A stretch of DNA of 64,000 bases. It comes from Clostridiales bacterium (GTDB lineage Bacteria > Bacillota > Clostridia > Oscillospirales > CAG-272). The position numbers and the translations under genes are program-made. This document shows, piece after piece, positions 10,980-20,568 of the stretch. The stretch lies in assembly GCA_022793655.1 (NCBI GenBank), contig JAAWDG010000001.1:59252-123251 (forward strand). Direction: 5' to 3'. The notes under the pieces were generated by a model. It saw only the letters and a program-made list of their open reading frames with translations. It did no database searches and was not told the origin of the DNA. Positions within the stretch are counted from its first letter, which is position 1; each line of letters starts with the position of its first letter.

Positions 10980-11055
10980 AGGGGTATAGCTCAGTTGGTA
11001 GAGCAGCGGTCTCCAAAACCGCGTGTCCAGAGTTCGAGTCTTTGTGCCCCTGCCA
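10980..11055 (+). tRNA. trnW: tRNA-Trp (anticodon CCA), CCA end encoded
   Basis: Acceptor stem AGGGGTA/TGCCCCT. D-arm AGCTCAGTTGGTAGAGC. Anticodon loop CTCCAAA. T-arm GAGTTCGAGTCTT. Discriminator G plus CCA. Confidence 0.9.
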
Positions 11056-13166: not shown

Positions 13167-13259
13167 TTGTATGTACAATCGTTTAATATGACACGAGATA
13201 TAATCACTGAGGTTAGTATTACATAAATTGACAGTCACCTATAAACCATGGAGGGATAT

Positions 13260-13529
13260 ATGAGCCACAATACTTATGACAATATTAAGGAAGAGGTTGT
13301 TAAAATACTGGAGAACAACGGAGTCGTTGTAGAGATGGAAAATGATGGCGATGCTGTTTTGGATATCGCAGCCATTGACTCTATTACGTTTATATCATTT
13401 ATTGTTGACATAGAAAATACATTTGGAATTGCTATTCCCGATGAACTGTTATCTCTTATGATTATACAATCGTTAAATGGTTTTGTTTATGTCTTGAGTG
13501 AGCTGCTAATCGAAAAGCGTGAATATTAA
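13260..13529 (+). CDS. acyl-carrier-protein-like small protein
   Basis: 89 aa, acidic. IDSITFISFIVDIENTFGIAIPDELL matches the carrier-protein helix II region, including the DS(L/I) phosphopantetheine-site pattern. GGAGGG RBS precedes ATG 13260. Confidence 0.75.
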   Translation: MSHNTYDNIKEEVVKILENNGVVVEMENDGDAVLDIAAIDSITFISFIVDIENTFGIAIPDELLSLMIIQSLNGFVYVLSELLIEKREY

Positions 13530-13607
13530 GTCGCACAGCAGCGGATATTCAATCCTAATATTATATTGGGATTCATGTCAAATAAACATAAAGAAAGGAG
13601 ATACACT

Positions 13608-13751
13608 ATGAAAAAGCTTAGAAAACCGACTTCCAAGCGCACGGAAACCCTTAACAAGGTACGTATTCTAGGAACGATGGCGACTTCTGAACCTGGTTCA
13701 AAGTATCAAGGCTGTCAGAATCCTCGTGGCTGTGGCTGCACAGCTTGCTAA
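13608..13751 (+). CDS. RiPP precursor peptide candidate (47 aa)
   Basis: AAAGGAG RBS lies 7 nt upstream of ATG 13608. Sequence MKKLRKPTSKRTETLNKVRILGTMATSEPGSKYQGCQNPRGCGCTAC has a basic leader and four Cys in the last 13 residues. It sits between the maturase genes and the exporters. Confidence 0.72.
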   Translation: MKKLRKPTSKRTETLNKVRILGTMATSEPGSKYQGCQNPRGCGCTAC

Positions 13752-13859
13752 CTAACTGAAGTGGATTGTAAATCGGAGTTTCTCTGACTACCATGGAGGA
13801 ACTCCGGTTGAAATCCTTTATAAAGGTTAAAACATGGAAAATTAATTGTTGGAGCTTAT

Positions 13860-15602
13860 ATGAAAAAACAATTCTCATGTCTTTTATTTTATTTTAAAAC
13901 TATATGGAAAAGAGAAAAACTGATTTTCCTTAATATCGGAATCTCTGTTTTAATCAACACATTTGCTTCATATGTAAATATATATTTTCTTAAATATCTT
14001 CTTGATTTCCTTGAAGCGGGAAAATATTCACATTCGATTCTCTGGACACTATGCTGTTTAGTGGTTATGAATCTAACGTCAAATATCTCAAGTTTGCTGA
14101 ATATCACTGTTTCAAACGCATACTACCGCATAAACACGTATCTTCGTTCCCAGGTTTTGAATATCAGTACTTCAGTCAGATTTGAGGAGATCGAAAATCC
14201 GGATGCACTCAATCATTTCGAACTTGCACACAAATGTGTGAACCAGAATATTCTTTCAAGTTACACACAGGTGCTTATAAGCATAGTGTCATCCGTTTTT
14301 GTTATCGCTGGGACGGTATATATTTCGTTTGAAATCAAATGGTGGATGTCAATCCTGGCTCTTAGTGTAACGGCTATCAATACAGTTTGTAATATTCTTA
14401 TCTCAAAAAACGAGATCGCGCGTTTTCATGAGGAGACCGCAGTGAGTAAGCAGCTCGAATACAGCAGGTTTTGGTTGACTGACATCAGCCGTGCTAAGGA
14501 AGTGCGTACATACACACTCCATAGATATATCGTAAATAAGCTGCGTGAGTATAATGACAAACTTTTTGCATCGCTTCATAAATTCACGAAAAAAAGGAAG
14601 AAGCCGTACCTTGTCATTGAAATAATAAACGCTATTCAATTATTTGCCGTATATTCTTTTTGTGCATATCAAATGGTTTCTGAGGGAATCAGTGCCGGAG
14701 ATTTCATGCTGTATTCGTCGGCAGTGTTTACCTTTGGCGGAGCACTCAACAGCATTACGAATAGCGTGATCAGCTTTTGGAACACAAACAGTTTGATGAT
14801 AACATTGATCAGCGTGTTAGATATTACAAAAAATCTCGAAAAGAGGACATTGTTTGACGAAGAGCTTAAAACGATCGAATTCAGAAATGTATCTTTCTCA
14901 TACAACAGCAGCGACGAAAATGCAATTGAGGACATAAGTTTCACTGTCAATTCAAATGAAAAATTCTCGATTATCGGCGAAAACGGTGCAGGGAAAAGTA
15001 CACTTGTTAAACTGCTTCTCGGAATGTATACTCCGACAAAGGGGGCGATCTTTATTAACGGAAAAATAATGGATCCCGAAAAGTATGACTACACACCACT
15101 GTTCAGTGCTGTGTTTCAGGACTACAAGATATTCAGCTTTACCGTCGAAGACAATATAAAAATGAGCGAAAAAGAACTGAGCGAAGGCGAAAAAGAAAAG
15201 ATTCGTTCTTTGCTCGGTTCTATGGGTATGCAGAGCATAAATACGAACTCATTCATTACACAGACGTTTTCAGATGACGGGATAAACTTTTCCGGAGGAG
15301 AGGCACAAAAGCTTGCCATTGTCCGGGCGCTTTACAAGGATGCGCCGATAATAGTTCTTGATGAACCCACCGCTGCACTCTCGCCCCAGAGTGAGTATGA
15401 GATCTATCAGAACTTCAACGCTCTGACAAAGGATAAAACCATTTTATTTATATCTCATCGGCTGTCAAGCTGCCGAATATGCGATAAGATCCTCCTGCTC
15501 CATAACGGCAGACTGGAGGCGCTCGGTTCTCACGATGAGCTTTTCGGATCCAATGTACTCTATACAGAGATGTTTTCCGCTCAGGCAGAGCTGTTCGGTT
15601 AA
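13860..15602 (+). CDS. ABC exporter, fused permease/ATPase subunit 1
   Basis: N-terminal six-helix TMD. Walker A GENGAGKST, signature FSGGEAQK, Walker B IIVLDEPTAAL. No C39 peptidase domain. Confidence 0.9.
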   Translation: MKKQFSCLLFYFKTIWKREKLIFLNIGISVLINTFASYVNIYFLKYLLDFLEAGKYSHSILWTLCCLVVMNLTSNISSLLNITVSNAYYRINTYLRSQVLNISTSVRFEEIENPDALNHFELAHKCVNQNILSSYTQVLISIVSSVFVIAGTVYISFEIKWWMSILALSVTAINTVCNILISKNEIARFHEETAVSKQLEYSRFWLTDISRAKEVRTYTLHRYIVNKLREYNDKLFASLHKFTKKRKKPYLVIEIINAIQLFAVYSFCAYQMVSEGISAGDFMLYSSAVFTFGGALNSITNSVISFWNTNSLMITLISVLDITKNLEKRTLFDEELKTIEFRNVSFSYNSSDENAIEDISFTVNSNEKFSIIGENGAGKSTLVKLLLGMYTPTKGAIFINGKIMDPEKYDYTPLFSAVFQDYKIFSFTVEDNIKMSEKELSEGEKEKIRSLLGSMGMQSINTNSFITQTFSDDGINFSGGEAQKLAIVRALYKDAPIIVLDEPTAALSPQSEYEIYQNFNALTKDKTILFISHRLSSCRICDKILLLHNGRLEALGSHDELFGSNVLYTEMFSAQAELFG

Positions 15603-15637: not shown

Positions 15638-17410
15638 ATGGCTTTAGCAGATAAAATAAAAAAAGTTTTCAAGACCTCATTTGAAGTGTCTGCGATGTTC
15701 ATACGGAACTGCAAGAAGCTCTTGCTCTTGGATGTTTTTCTTGGAATCAGCCGAGAGGTAAGACAGCTTATTATAACTGTTCTGCCGTCCATAGTGATTT
15801 GGCTTTGTACAGGTTCCGAATATACTATAGTTTCTTCGGTTATCGCGGCGATGGTTGCAGCAATTGCTGTTCTTGGAATCCTTATCGAGAAAGGTCAGTG
15901 CAATCTGTCGGACAACTCATTGCACGCAACCAATACCCTATACTACTTTTTAAATGGTAAAAATGCTCGTCTTGATTTGAAAGATGCCGAAGACGGTACA
16001 ATAATTGATCAGTACTACAAGGCATTTGATAACATTTACAATTTTAGCGATGTGCATTACAGTATTTTCTGTGTTCTTCTTGGCAAACTGATCTCCTTTG
16101 CTATCATGAGCGCCTTCATTATTTCGGTTGACATCAGATTGTATCCGATCGTACTCGCAGAAAACTTTATCGTTTTGATTATTAAGGCAAAGAAGAATCA
16201 TATTGATCACTCATTTGAAGAGGAAATATCAAAGAATACGAAAAAGGTAAAATACCTCTCGGAGCTTCTTTATGATTTTGAAGCCGGACGTGATCTCAGG
16301 ATTTATAACGGAAATGATATGGTAAGCAACAGATACATGGATGAGCTCCTTCACGCAAGAAGAATTGAGATCAAAAAACAACGTAAGGATTTTCTTATAG
16401 ACCTCGTTATCGGTATTTTGGGACTTGGACAACTATTCCTTATATATCTTCTGGCGATAAACAAATATTTTGTCGGAGGACTTTTGCTCGTAAATTTTAT
16501 TCTGTACGTAAACGCATCCAATCAGATTGCCTCATCTATTTCCGATATTGTGTGGACGGTGAGCGTCCTGCACACTGCCTCGATCTATTATGAGGACTTC
16601 AACAAATATATGGAGCTCGAAGAGACAATTCGCGAAAAAGGAACTGATACTCCTCCTTTGGGAAGTTCTGTGCCATTCATAGAGTTTAGAAATGTCTCGT
16701 TTAAATATCCGAATCAGGAGATCTTTTCATTAGAAAATTTCTCATGTACCATTGAATATGGCGATCATATTTCCATAGTCGGTGACAATGGTGCAGGAAA
16801 ATCAACTTTTGTAAAGCTGCTCCTGAGGCTTTACGAGCCGACAGAGGGTACGATCTATTACAAGGGAAAAGATATCAGGGAATACGATTTTGATTCCTAT
16901 CAGACTGTATTTGCTCCGGTATTTCAGGATTATGTTCTGAACGCTTTCTCGATCCGCGAAAACCTGATTTTCGATTATGACGAAAGAAATGATTTGATAA
17001 AATCTTCGCTTGAAAAAACGGGGATGTATGATAAAATCATGGATGTCGGTCTGGACAGACCGTACAGTCGAAAATTCTTTGAGGATGGTATCGAATTGTC
17101 GGGCGGAGAACAGCAGCGGCTTGTGATCTCACGAGCATACTGTAAGAATGCCGAGGTACTCATACTCGACGAACCGACCGCCGCAATCGATCCGCTCTCA
17201 GAACGCAAGCTGTTTGAGGATGTTTTCAGCAGTATTGGGGAAAGAACGAGCATAATGATATCGCACAGGATGTCCTGTTCAAAATTCTCAAACAGAATAT
17301 TTGTGATGGATCACGGAAAGCTCGTTGAGCAAGGTGCTCACGACAAGCTAATCAATGCAAACGGGTTGTATTCTTTTATGTATCGTCGGCAGGCACAGTA
17401 CTATTCGTGA
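15638..17410 (+). CDS. ABC exporter, fused permease/ATPase subunit 2
   Basis: TMD followed by Walker A GDNGAGKST, signature LSGGEQQR and Walker B VLILDEPTAAID. Probable heterodimer partner of the preceding gene. Confidence 0.9.
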   Translation: MALADKIKKVFKTSFEVSAMFIRNCKKLLLLDVFLGISREVRQLIITVLPSIVIWLCTGSEYTIVSSVIAAMVAAIAVLGILIEKGQCNLSDNSLHATNTLYYFLNGKNARLDLKDAEDGTIIDQYYKAFDNIYNFSDVHYSIFCVLLGKLISFAIMSAFIISVDIRLYPIVLAENFIVLIIKAKKNHIDHSFEEEISKNTKKVKYLSELLYDFEAGRDLRIYNGNDMVSNRYMDELLHARRIEIKKQRKDFLIDLVIGILGLGQLFLIYLLAINKYFVGGLLLVNFILYVNASNQIASSISDIVWTVSVLHTASIYYEDFNKYMELEETIREKGTDTPPLGSSVPFIEFRNVSFKYPNQEIFSLENFSCTIEYGDHISIVGDNGAGKSTFVKLLLRLYEPTEGTIYYKGKDIREYDFDSYQTVFAPVFQDYVLNAFSIRENLIFDYDERNDLIKSSLEKTGMYDKIMDVGLDRPYSRKFFEDGIELSGGEQQRLVISRAYCKNAEVLILDEPTAAIDPLSERKLFEDVFSSIGERTSIMISHRMSCSKFSNRIFVMDHGKLVEQGAHDKLINANGLYSFMYRRQAQYYS

Positions 17411-17466: not shown

Positions 17467-19272
17467 ATGAATAAGGAATATGATGTTGTTGTGATCGATA
17501 CCGGAGTTGAAAAAGCACATTCCAGATTGGCAAATCATGATATTGAATGCATAAAAATAACAAAAGTAACAGATGGGTTTATAGTGGAAGATTTGTCAGA
17601 TGGCGGAGATGATGTCGGACACGGGACAGCTGTATGTGATATAATAGCATCACATTATAAGGACGTTTCTATTCTTGTAATAAAAGCATTTGATAGCACA
17701 CTTAGTGCAGATGAATCATTGATAGTAGATGTTTTGTATTACATCTATGAAAATATCGCTTGTCGAATTATTAATATGAGTTTGGGGATTTCAATAGAAA
17801 GCGATAAATTGAAAGAAATATGTTATAATTTGGCTAATAAAGGGATTATACTTATAGCAGCATTTGATAATGATGGCTCTATAGCATATCCGGCGGCATT
17901 TGATAGTGTTATTGGAGTAACTTCATGTAACTATTGCACCAGAAATAATGATTATATTATTGTGAACGATCAAAGAGTAAACATCGGAGCTAAAGGGGGA
18001 CTTCAGAAAATAGCATGGAGCGCAAACAGTATATTAGTCGGAGTAGGAGATAGCTATGCTTGTGCACATGTTTCTGGAATAAGTGCAAATTTAATATCCC
18101 AAAGAACGGTTGAAAACAAAGAACAATTAATATGCGAACTAAAAGTACTGCAGGATGAAATCGAAAATAATAAAGTTAACGATCCTGTTCGTTGTAAAAC
18201 CCGGGTGGTCAATTTTAGCAAGGTGGCTTTATTCCCATTTAATAAAGAAATGCACGCTCTTGTTAGATTTTCGGATATGTTGCCATTTACAATTACAGGA
18301 ATTTATGATATAAAATATTCTCCTAATATAGGTGTAACGGCAGAACGACTTTTGAGGCTTAATTCTTCTTCGAAAACAACAATAAGAAATATAAACTCTA
18401 TCAATTGGGATGAAATTGATACATTAATTATTGGCCACACGCGGGATTTGTTTAACAATATTGTGAAGAATAATTCATTGCTCCATCTTTTATTATCTCA
18501 GGCTGAAACACTGAACAAAAATGTATTTTCATTTGATCAGATTCCTAAATCATTTGAGAATGTGCCCAATTTTGTTGCCCCGCCTATTTATAGGAATTAC
18601 GAACCTATTCCTTTTGGAAAACTATATCATATTTCCAAACCGGTTCTGGCTGTTTTTGGAACCGATTCTCAACAAGGTAAATTTTCTCTTCAGTTAGCTT
18701 TGAGAAAAAATCTTTTGTCTCGTGGTTATAAGGTTGGTCAATTAGGAACAGAACCAACAAGTTTTTTGTTTGAAATGGATGAATGTATTCATTTTGGATA
18801 CGATTCGGATTTGAACCCGGTTGGTTTTGAATTTGTGTCATTGGTAAACTCACTTTTAAATAATATATCTAGTCGAAACGTGGATATTATAATTACCGGT
18901 TGTCAATCGTCTACTTTATTGACTAATGAGGGAAATTTAGCATATTATCCTGTTCAACAGATTAATTTTTTATTAGGTACGCTTCCGGATGCTGTTATTT
19001 TGGTTGTCAATCCTGATGACCAAGAAAAGACAATTGATAGGACTATTTCATTTATAGAATCTTGTGTGGAAACAAAGGTTATTGCTATTGTTGTTTTCCC
19101 TATGGAAAAAAATCCTTCTAATAAAAATTTGATCAAAACGCATATTTCAGAAAATTCATATAGCAGCATTAAGAAATCAATGCAAAGTAGATACAATATA
19201 AACGTTTTTATCTTTGATGATGATAATGAAATAAACCAATTAACAGAATTGATTGAAGACTTTTTTGGATAA
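17467..19272 (+). CDS. S8 (subtilisin-like) serine peptidase fused to a roughly 350-aa C-terminal domain of unknown function
   Basis: Catalytic-triad contexts VVVIDTGV (Asp), VGHGTAV (His), NMSLG (oxyanion Asn) and GDSYACAHVSG (Ser). No signal peptide. The C-terminal half contains GTDSQQGKFS, reminiscent of DUF1611-type proteins. Confidence 0.8.
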   Translation: MNKEYDVVVIDTGVEKAHSRLANHDIECIKITKVTDGFIVEDLSDGGDDVGHGTAVCDIIASHYKDVSILVIKAFDSTLSADESLIVDVLYYIYENIACRIINMSLGISIESDKLKEICYNLANKGIILIAAFDNDGSIAYPAAFDSVIGVTSCNYCTRNNDYIIVNDQRVNIGAKGGLQKIAWSANSILVGVGDSYACAHVSGISANLISQRTVENKEQLICELKVLQDEIENNKVNDPVRCKTRVVNFSKVALFPFNKEMHALVRFSDMLPFTITGIYDIKYSPNIGVTAERLLRLNSSSKTTIRNINSINWDEIDTLIIGHTRDLFNNIVKNNSLLHLLLSQAETLNKNVFSFDQIPKSFENVPNFVAPPIYRNYEPIPFGKLYHISKPVLAVFGTDSQQGKFSLQLALRKNLLSRGYKVGQLGTEPTSFLFEMDECIHFGYDSDLNPVGFEFVSLVNSLLNNISSRNVDIIITGCQSSTLLTNEGNLAYYPVQQINFLLGTLPDAVILVVNPDDQEKTIDRTISFIESCVETKVIAIVVFPMEKNPSNKNLIKTHISENSYSSIKKSMQSRYNINVFIFDDDNEINQLTELIEDFFG

Positions 19273-20523: not shown

Positions 20524-20568
20524 CTCCAAAACCGCGTGTCCAGAGTTCGAGTCTTTGTGCCCCTGCCA
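20524..20568 (+). repeat. displaced 3' half of tRNA-Trp (att-like direct repeat)
   Basis: Identical to 11011-11055. No 5' half of a tRNA precedes it. A hairpin terminator follows. Confidence 0.85.

Follow-up and report, generated by a model that had tools for sequence, protein, structure and literature searches.

An acyl-carrier-like protein with an invariant serine in a mobile radical-SAM peptide cassette of gut Clostridia

A 64,000-nucleotide stretch of the genome of a Clostridiales bacterium (GenBank assembly GCA_022793655.1, contig JAAWDG010000001.1), referred to here as the window, contains a genomic island with the genes of a predicted pathway for a peptide that is synthesized ribosomally and then modified post-translationally (RiPP), including a gene encoding a small protein that resembles acyl carrier proteins (ACPs). 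Carrier proteins typically mark non-ribosomal and polyketide assembly lines rather than pathways for ribosomal peptides. The 89-amino-acid (aa) protein encoded here has a genuine carrier fold with an intact, invariant attachment serine, and belongs obligatorily to a mobile cassette present in many gut Clostridia. The cassette is predicted to cross-link, trim and export small cysteine-rich peptides and, as judged from sequence comparisons, is a diverged sister of the CcpM system, which is known from in silico work. It is possible, though on balance doubtful, that these loci define a large class of RiPPs in gut Clostridia tailored via a dedicated holo-carrier, with an acyl group or the peptide itself handled by a DgcN-fold domain fused to the leader peptidase.

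A carrier protein with an invariant serine

The ATG at 13260 is preceded, 4 nt upstream, by a ribosome-binding site (GGAGGG), and an alternative ATG at 13248 has no such site. The encoded protein is acidic (isoelectric point 4.05), with 17 aspartate or glutamate residues vs 4 lysine or arginine residues. An initial annotation of the window had recognized in it an ACP-like protein with a DS(I) site at helix II, and had proposed a search with the PP-binding hidden Markov model (HMM), a prediction of the fold and an assessment of serine conservation as checks; all three have been run, and they bear this assignment out. The Pfam PP-binding model PF00550 matches the protein with a score of 23.6 bits (gathering score 20.8; E = 6.2e-5), in an alignment limited to residues 37–64 (AAIDSITFISFIVDIENTFGIAIPDELL). 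Fourteen NCBIfam ACP models also match it, with E-values of 2e-7 to 1e-2 and scores of 15–31 bits, each below its own cut-off (66–146 bits). An AlphaFold2 model based on an alignment of 149 sequences (predicted local distance difference test score, pLDDT, 83.1; predicted template modelling score, pTM, 0.75) is a four-helix bundle with helices at residues 5–19, 41–55, 61–67 and 72–88, in which Ser41 caps the N-terminus of helix II. A Foldseek comparison of this model with the PDB returned acyl carrier proteins for 49 of the 50 top matches, the best being 1vku (template modelling score, TM, 0.72–0.75); in many of the top matches the ACP serves as a structural subunit (complex I, MmpL5-AcpM and EmbAB-AcpM). 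The fold is, thus, not the winged helix-turn-helix of a PqqD-like RiPP recognition element (RRE), with its three strands and three helices, the model being an all-helical four-helix bundle, although the carrier may still have a leader-binding role.

A profile search of 1.84 billion representative proteins identified 1200 relatives of the carrier with E-values up to 1e-3, of which 104 had values up to 1e-10; almost all are free-standing proteins of 76–120 aa. The roughly 1200 relatives are representatives at 50% identity, and conservation was counted on an aligned subset (n = 149). Ser41 and Glu52 are invariant in this subset (149/149), and Gly21, Asp40 and Pro60 are each conserved in at least 90% of the sequences. 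Asp40 is present in 136 of the 149 representatives and isoleucine or leucine at position 42 in 126, with column 40 also accepting asparagine, glutamate, serine or threonine. The invariance of Ser41, next to a variable Asp40, argues for a chemical role of the serine over a role in helix capping. The window genome has four carrier-protein open reading frames (ORFs), the other three lying at C5:128572-128811, C16:26661-26903 and C14:14052-14303. With an HMM built for the carrier family, cassette carriers score 85–113 bits, and the window carrier 104 bits, vs no more than 35 bits for these three.

An obligate part of a mobile cassette

The island, of about 9.5 kb, has a low GC content (0.30–0.42 vs about 0.5 in the flanks) and lies between perfect 45-nt direct repeats that correspond to the 3' end of a tRNA-Trp gene. 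No integrase or other recombinase ORF was found inside it. Its seven genes are all on the forward strand, and encode, in order, a radical S-adenosylmethionine (radical-SAM)/SPASM maturase, the carrier, a precursor peptide, two ATP-binding cassette (ABC) exporters, a fusion of an S8 subtilase with a TIGR04066/DUF1611-like domain, and a 342-aa protein (Table 1).

Table 1. Features of the island and its boundaries, in coordinates of the window.
Feature	Position	Strand	Remarks
tRNA-Trp	10980-11055	+	3' end is the left 45-nt direct repeat, 11011..11055
Radical-SAM/SPASM RiPP maturase, 458 aa	11790..13166	+	CNFRCKYC, Cys-rich C-terminus; PF04055 67 bits
Free-standing carrier protein of ACP fold, 89 aa	13260..13529	+	Putative phosphopantetheine site Ser41, motif D40-S41-I-T-F
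Cys-rich precursor peptide, 47 aa	13608..13751	+	MKKLRKP leader, core ...GCQNPRGCGCTAC
ABC exporter, permease/ATPase, without C39 domain	13860..15602	+	PF00005, PF00664; kept in the cassette
Second ABC exporter subunit	15638..17410	+	PF00005
S8 subtilase domain, QhpE-like, N-terminal half of the fusion	17467..18216	+	PF00082 56.8 bits; NF049966 QhpE 127 bits
TIGR04066-like/DUF1611 (DgcN-fold) P-loop domain, C-terminal half of the fusion	18217..19272	+	PF07755; candidate carrier partner
342-aa protein, diverged member of an accessory family of about 330-355 aa	19324..20352	+	Family HMM E 2.6e-7
Right copy of the 45-nt direct repeat	20524..20568	+	

The layout of the cassette is identical in nine contexts anchored on the ACP-like gene and in all three contexts reached independently from the S8::DUF1611 fusion; the maturase, the carrier and the fusion occur together in all of them. 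The radical-SAM gene lies directly upstream of the ACP-like gene in nearly all loci, the two genes overlapping by up to 8 nt or being separated by up to 101 nt, with overlaps of 1–8 nt in loci L020, L027 and L029. The ACP-like gene is usually followed by a gene for a 31–53-aa peptide with an MKKLxKP leader, and the set is completed by one or more ABC exporters and the S8::DUF1611 fusion. Among the distinct precursors (loci L001–L029 and the window), all have an MKKLxKP-type leader and 17 of 19 end in a C-terminal cysteine; several cores consist of repeats of a C-x-G-x-Y-x-x-C unit.

Co-occurrence was counted in 301 genomes of the order. Both the ACP-like gene and the DUF1611-like domain were present in nine genomes, the ACP-like gene alone in two, the DUF1611-like domain alone in two and neither in 288 (Fisher p = 6e-14). 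Where both are present, they are always 1–6 kb apart, and in one of the genomes counted as having the DUF1611-like domain alone, the carrier is present just below the threshold, beside a radical-SAM gene. The cassette is found in about 3–4% of the genomes in the order, in a patchy distribution consistent with its mobile contexts, which include tRNA islands, conjugative elements and nearby recombinases. The cassette is very common, the S8::DUF1611 fusion itself being represented by at least 520 clusters at 90% identity.

Several loci depart from this basic layout or have neighbours of interest. Loci L022 (10270-15935), L026 (13196-18604) and L029 (4940-10540) represent a sub-variant with a second radical-SAM gene, encoding about 337 aa and overlapping the end of the carrier gene, and with a gene for a Formyl_trans_N protein of about 250 aa; insertion sequences are present in L026. 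A 68%-identical cassette (L004, 2750-7368) lies on a contig resembling a conjugative element, with a TraG/type IV secretion system coupling protein, and has an agr-like module (AgrB, a LytTR response regulator and a histidine kinase) just upstream, which suggests that the cassette is under quorum-sensing control.

Some evidence of expression comes from mouse-gut metatranscriptome contigs of two studies, which match the window exactly at 13468-13624, 13609-13759 and 13695-13852 (span 13468-14300). These matches cover the 3' end of the ACP-like gene, the precursor gene and the first ABC gene, and one contig bridges the junction between the ACP-like and precursor genes; no contig covers the radical-SAM gene, at a very low depth. 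Given the low depth and the possibility of DNA carry-over, transcription, and co-transcription of the ACP-like and precursor genes, are weakly supported.

Relation to the CcpM system

The CcpM system, as defined in Haft's TIGRFAMs, consists of a peptide (TIGR04065), a TIGR04066 protein, a radical-SAM/SPASM protein (TIGR04068), an 'acyl carrier-related protein' (TIGR04069), a subtilase and an ABC exporter. Earlier work noted a CcpM-type set in Roseburia intestinalis L1-82 (PMC4573289) and the same set of parts in the SacP23 cluster of Paenibacillus polymyxa (PMC10731318), in both cases without experiments on the ACP-related protein, and our search of the literature turned up no experimental study of this protein. 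The two systems have a common list of parts: a maturase, a TIGR04066/DUF1611-like protein, an ACP-fold protein, an S8 protease, one or more ABC exporters and a Cys-rich precursor. The island has the TIGR04069-type neighbourhood (radical-SAM/SPASM, TIGR04066, subtilase and ABC exporter), TIGR04066 and S8 forming a single protein. The initial annotation had called the presence of a carrier unusual for radical-SAM RiPP systems, and this requires qualification: the pairing has already been catalogued in silico as TIGR04069 and noted in Roseburia and Paenibacillus, so that it is neither unheard of nor categorically new.

The similarity does not extend to membership of the same families. The window carrier has no match at E <= 1 to the TIGR04069 model (cut-off 70 bits), and the sole match in a scan of the whole genome is another ORF, on C14 (19.7 bits). 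Among the members of the carrier family, 20 of 149 touch the TIGR04069 model, the best with E = 4e-7. The window precursor has no match to TIGR04065, and the fusion protein scores 64.6–68.3 bits on TIGR04066, in a full-length alignment below the cut-off of 200 bits. The maturase scores 97 bits on TIGR04068 (CcpM; cut-off 500); its best-scoring curated model is TIGR04463 (157 of 525 bits), and its best sequence match in the PDB is CteB (5wgg).

Canonical TIGR04069 proteins (five proteins, loci L035–L040, from other Clostridia genomes) were compared with the window family. Both have the motifs DIExxFxIxIP(D/E) and S-x-N, which are lacking in the housekeeping AcpP. They differ in the serine column, at which canonical TIGR04069 proteins have proline or alanine followed by Arg-Asp-Leu (5/5 members above the cut-off), whereas the window family has D-S-I/L. 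The absence of a model match and this different signature rule out the window carrier as a member of TIGR04069. Without the serine, pantetheinylation at the canonical site is impossible in canonical TIGR04069 proteins, and this family seems to have kept the carrier fold but lost the attachment site. The gene order also differs: in canonical loci it is TIGR04066, ACP-related gene, S8, whereas in the window the carrier follows the radical-SAM gene. The genes on either side of the ACP-related gene in the canonical order thus correspond to the two halves of the window's fusion. What is new here is a very large, uncurated family that, unlike TIGR04069, keeps its serine invariantly, together with the fused S8::TIGR04066 protein and the different gene order.

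Comparison with other carrier and peptide systems

Type II ACPs (AcpP, PF00550), stand-alone DltC, AsbD and AmcB resemble the window carrier in their four-helix fold, their acidity and a DS(L/I) motif at the start of helix II. The window carrier differs in that its helix II is not acidic but hydrophobic (SITFISFIV), it has PDE and SLNGF motifs specific to the family, and a fatty-acid synthase (FAS), Dlt or siderophore context is lacking. In the butirosin system (BtrI/BtrH), as here, a small carrier occurs beside a protein of BtrH_N-like sequence, and this system provides a precedent for ACP-dependent N-acylation by a papain-like acyltransferase; BtrH is an ACP:aminoglycoside acyltransferase (PMC10318531). 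The window cassette differs from it in that the BtrH_N likeness is below the cut-off, the acceptor would be a ribosomal peptide and loaders of the BtrJ/K type are absent.

The maturation system of quinohemoprotein amine dehydrogenase (Qhp) pairs QhpD, a thioether-forming SPASM maturase, with QhpE, a cytoplasmic S8 protease lacking a signal, much as in the cassette, and the island scores 127 bits on NF049966 (QhpE) and 75 bits on TIGR03906. The Qhp system differs in that a carrier protein, a DUF1611 domain and an exported peptide product are all missing. Goadvionins (with GdvG) and lipolanthines are lipidated RiPPs whose N-terminus receives an ACP-bound acyl group; their clusters encode a GNAT transferase and polyketide synthase or FAS machinery, and the window cassette has neither.

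Candidate partners of the carrier

The catalytic Asp, His, Asn and Ser contexts of the S8 domain are near-invariant across 80 homologues, and this domain is a probable leader peptidase. The C-terminal half of the fusion and the 342-aa protein had been put forward in the initial annotation as candidate transferases for a carrier-tethered group. This stands up in part: the former has a DUF1611/DgcN fold and the family of the latter has a weak likeness to BtrH_N, but the window copy of the 342-aa protein lacks the HD motif.

The AlphaFold2 model of the C-terminal half of the fusion (pLDDT 93.8) matches the DUF1611 structures 2g0t and 2obn in Foldseek searches (TM 0.66–0.70), as well as 7xrj, deposited as the N-acetyltransferase DgcN (E = 1.7e-9, TM 0.63–0.66, about 15% identity), with which it shares both the two-domain fold and the P-loop. 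Unlike DgcN, to which it is likened by fold, the window domain is fused to a protease and lies in a RiPP context. The next folds after the DUF1611 structures are P-loop proteins of the BioD, MinD and MeaB types, and a Walker-A-like GTxxxQGK motif is invariant in the DUF1611-like domain.

A single-sequence phmmer search with the 342-aa protein found no homologue in 26 loci, but a profile of the recurring cassette neighbours of about 340 aa recovered its membership of an accessory family that recurs in at least 11 loci. On this profile the next ORF has E = 0.37, vs the value given for the window protein in Table 1, and the possibility that the 342-aa protein is not conserved is thereby ruled out. 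Four members of the accessory family match BtrH_N or Peptidase_C39_2 (17.8–20.6 bits).

Loaders and phosphopantetheinyl transferases

No phosphopantetheinyl transferase (PPTase), adenylating enzyme, ketosynthase or acyltransferase family was detected in the seven island proteins with Pfam and NCBIfam models, in agreement with the initial annotation, which had recognized no loading enzyme or PPTase in the island. A candidate PPTase is present elsewhere in the genome. This is a diverged Sfp-like ORF of 171 aa (C18:59673-60224), on another contig than the island, with GLDIE and WTKRES motifs and with matches to AASDHPPT_N (19.8 bits) and ACPS (18.5 bits), both below the cut-off. It is the sole PPTase candidate in the window genome (1.84 Mb), in which no PF01648 (ACPS) match reaches the cut-off and no AcpS-type enzyme was detected. 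Sfp-like homologues occur in 171 of the 301 genomes, irrespective of the cassette. A gene for an Sfp-type PPTase, apparently frameshifted, also adjoins the cassette in L026, together with a formyltransferase-like gene, and this PPTase and the ORF on C18 are mutual best matches.

Lower-scoring relatives of the carrier (about 62 bits on the family HMM) lie beside loaders, namely an FkbH-domain protein (222 bits, above the cut-off) and a MenE-like AMP-ligase. One such locus (L031, 1-13545; genome G084, contig C64) contains two radical-SAM/SPASM genes, two ABC exporters, an NTP_transf_5 protein, the 62-bit ACP and the FkbH protein, and suggests the presence of a glyceryl-ACP loader inside a radical-SAM peptide cluster. 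Two candidate Rosetta-stone fusions were rejected: P0117 is an ankyrin/kinase false positive and P0123 an unrelated triple ACP.

A possible role for a holo-carrier

The reading that we favour, plausible but tentative, is that of a holo-carrier shuttling an acyl group within a complex of maturase and protease. In this scheme, the Sfp-type PPTase encoded on another contig of the genome would convert the carrier to its holo form, which would associate with the maturase and the S8::DUF1611 protein. The pantetheine arm would bear a small acyl thioester and offer it to the DgcN-fold domain, possibly with the help of the BtrH_N-like accessory protein, and the DgcN-fold domain would move the acyl group onto an amine in the core peptide, most plausibly the new N-terminus produced when the fused S8 domain cuts off the MKKLxKP leader. 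As the cassette encodes no loader, loading would occur from primary metabolism (acyl-CoA) or would be performed by the P-loop domain itself. The carrier ancestry implied by this scheme is supported by the 62-bit relatives beside FkbH or AMP-ligase loaders, and the partner chemistry by the DgcN fold of the fused domain, the weak BtrH_N likeness of the accessory family and the canonical position of the ACP-related gene between TIGR04066 and S8. The carrier fold itself, the invariance of Ser41, the constant company of the maturase and the fusion, and the PPTase gene beside the cassette in L026 also speak for it.

Several observations weigh against such a shuttle. Adenylating enzymes, acyltransferases and FkbH loaders are absent from about 20 core-family loci. 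The Ser-less TIGR04069 proteins (5/5) retain their TIGR04066 partner, and the fold works there without a pantetheine arm. Two cassettes (L033 and L034; genome G225, contig C2) consist of S8::DUF1611 and ABC genes without a radical-SAM or carrier gene, indicating that the DUF1611 domain is not strictly dependent on the carrier, which tracks the radical-SAM gene more tightly; these two may be remnants, or processing and export modules working in trans. The BtrH_N matches of the accessory family are all below the cut-off, and the window copy reads FFRWLIYGYN where the family has HDxLIxGYD. Finally, the N-acetyltransferase label of DgcN, an enzyme that uses acetyl-CoA, is that of the title of its PDB entry. 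One of the two cassettes lacking a carrier, L033 or L034, adjoins a type I restriction-modification system.

Other explanations for the carrier

As the main alternative, the carrier might be a non-catalytic docking subunit, bridging or activating the maturase and the S8::DUF1611 protein or chaperoning the precursor, with no cargo and with the arm perhaps acting as a structural plug, much like the ACP subunits of complex I, MmpL5 or EmbAB. We consider this possible, but rather unlikely. The Ser-less TIGR04069 proteins share both motifs with the window family, which indicates that a docking role exists for the fold; the absence of a loader from about 20 loci, the frequent translational coupling of the carrier gene to the radical-SAM gene (as at the three overlapping junctions given above) and the many structural subunits among the top Foldseek matches point in the same direction. 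A docking subunit does not readily account for a serine retained in all 149 representatives, although other residues could cap the helix, nor for the dedicated loaders of the nearest lower-scoring relatives or the PPTase gene within one cassette (L026). A structural acyl-pantetheine plug would, however, likewise keep the serine, and on the holo state this explanation and that of an acyl shuttle overlap. The initial annotation had also raised the possibility of an RRE surrogate, in which the carrier fold would replace a PqqD-like element and bind the MKKLxKP leader for the maturase. No PqqD or RRE family was matched among the island proteins with Pfam and NCBIfam models, and the carrier gene adjoins those of the maturase and the precursor. 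RiPP maturases of the CteB kind usually bear their own RRE in an N-terminal extension, and the window maturase keeps such an extension, of about 100 aa, before its CxxxCxxC motif; it is spanned by the models of the sibling maturases TIGR04463 (from residue 14) and CefB (from residue 11). A profile of 11 maturase N-terminal regions gave weak matches only in the PDB (E of about 1–2). Leader binding would leave the invariant serine unexplained, and a surrogate role seems improbable.

In another scheme, which we regard as quite improbable, it is the peptide that is tethered: the P-loop DUF1611 domain would activate a carboxylate of the precursor (for example, that of the conserved C-terminal cysteine) with ATP and pass it to the pantetheine thiol, and a thioester would keep the peptide on the carrier while it is cross-linked or undergoes C-terminal chemistry. 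The GTxxxQGK motif is invariant, ATP-dependent ligases of the BioD type are the next-best folds after DUF1611, most of the precursors end in cysteine, and a separate loader would be unnecessary. However, the DUF1611 family offers no precedent for such a reaction, its one named member being deposited as an acetyltransferase; a tether of this kind is impossible in the Ser-less CcpM sister system, and two precursors have no terminal cysteine. The view of the protein as an ordinary fatty-acid or teichoic-acid carrier, present in the island by chance, is effectively refuted. It is matched weakly by the AcpP, DltC and AcpM models, but far below their cut-offs: housekeeping AcpP (TIGR00517) gives 16.4 of 70.45 bits and DltC (NF003464) 19.7 of 68 bits. 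The separation of the carrier from the genome's other carriers on the family HMM, the strict synteny and the co-occurrence also contradict such a view.

Significance

If tailoring by a holo-carrier were confirmed, a radical-SAM RiPP pathway would have carrier chemistry as an integral part, peptides would be shown to be substrates of a new acyltransferase or ligase fold, and the TIGR04069 branch, which lacks the serine, would represent a derived form used only for docking. Should the serine-bearing carrier deliver a group to the peptide, the products would be thioether peptides of a hybrid, acylated type for which no example has yet been described in the gut microbiome, and the DUF1611 fold would gain a second function. 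If, on the other hand, the carrier acts in docking only, the window family and the Ser-less TIGR04069 proteins would together document the conversion of a carrier protein into a scaffold.

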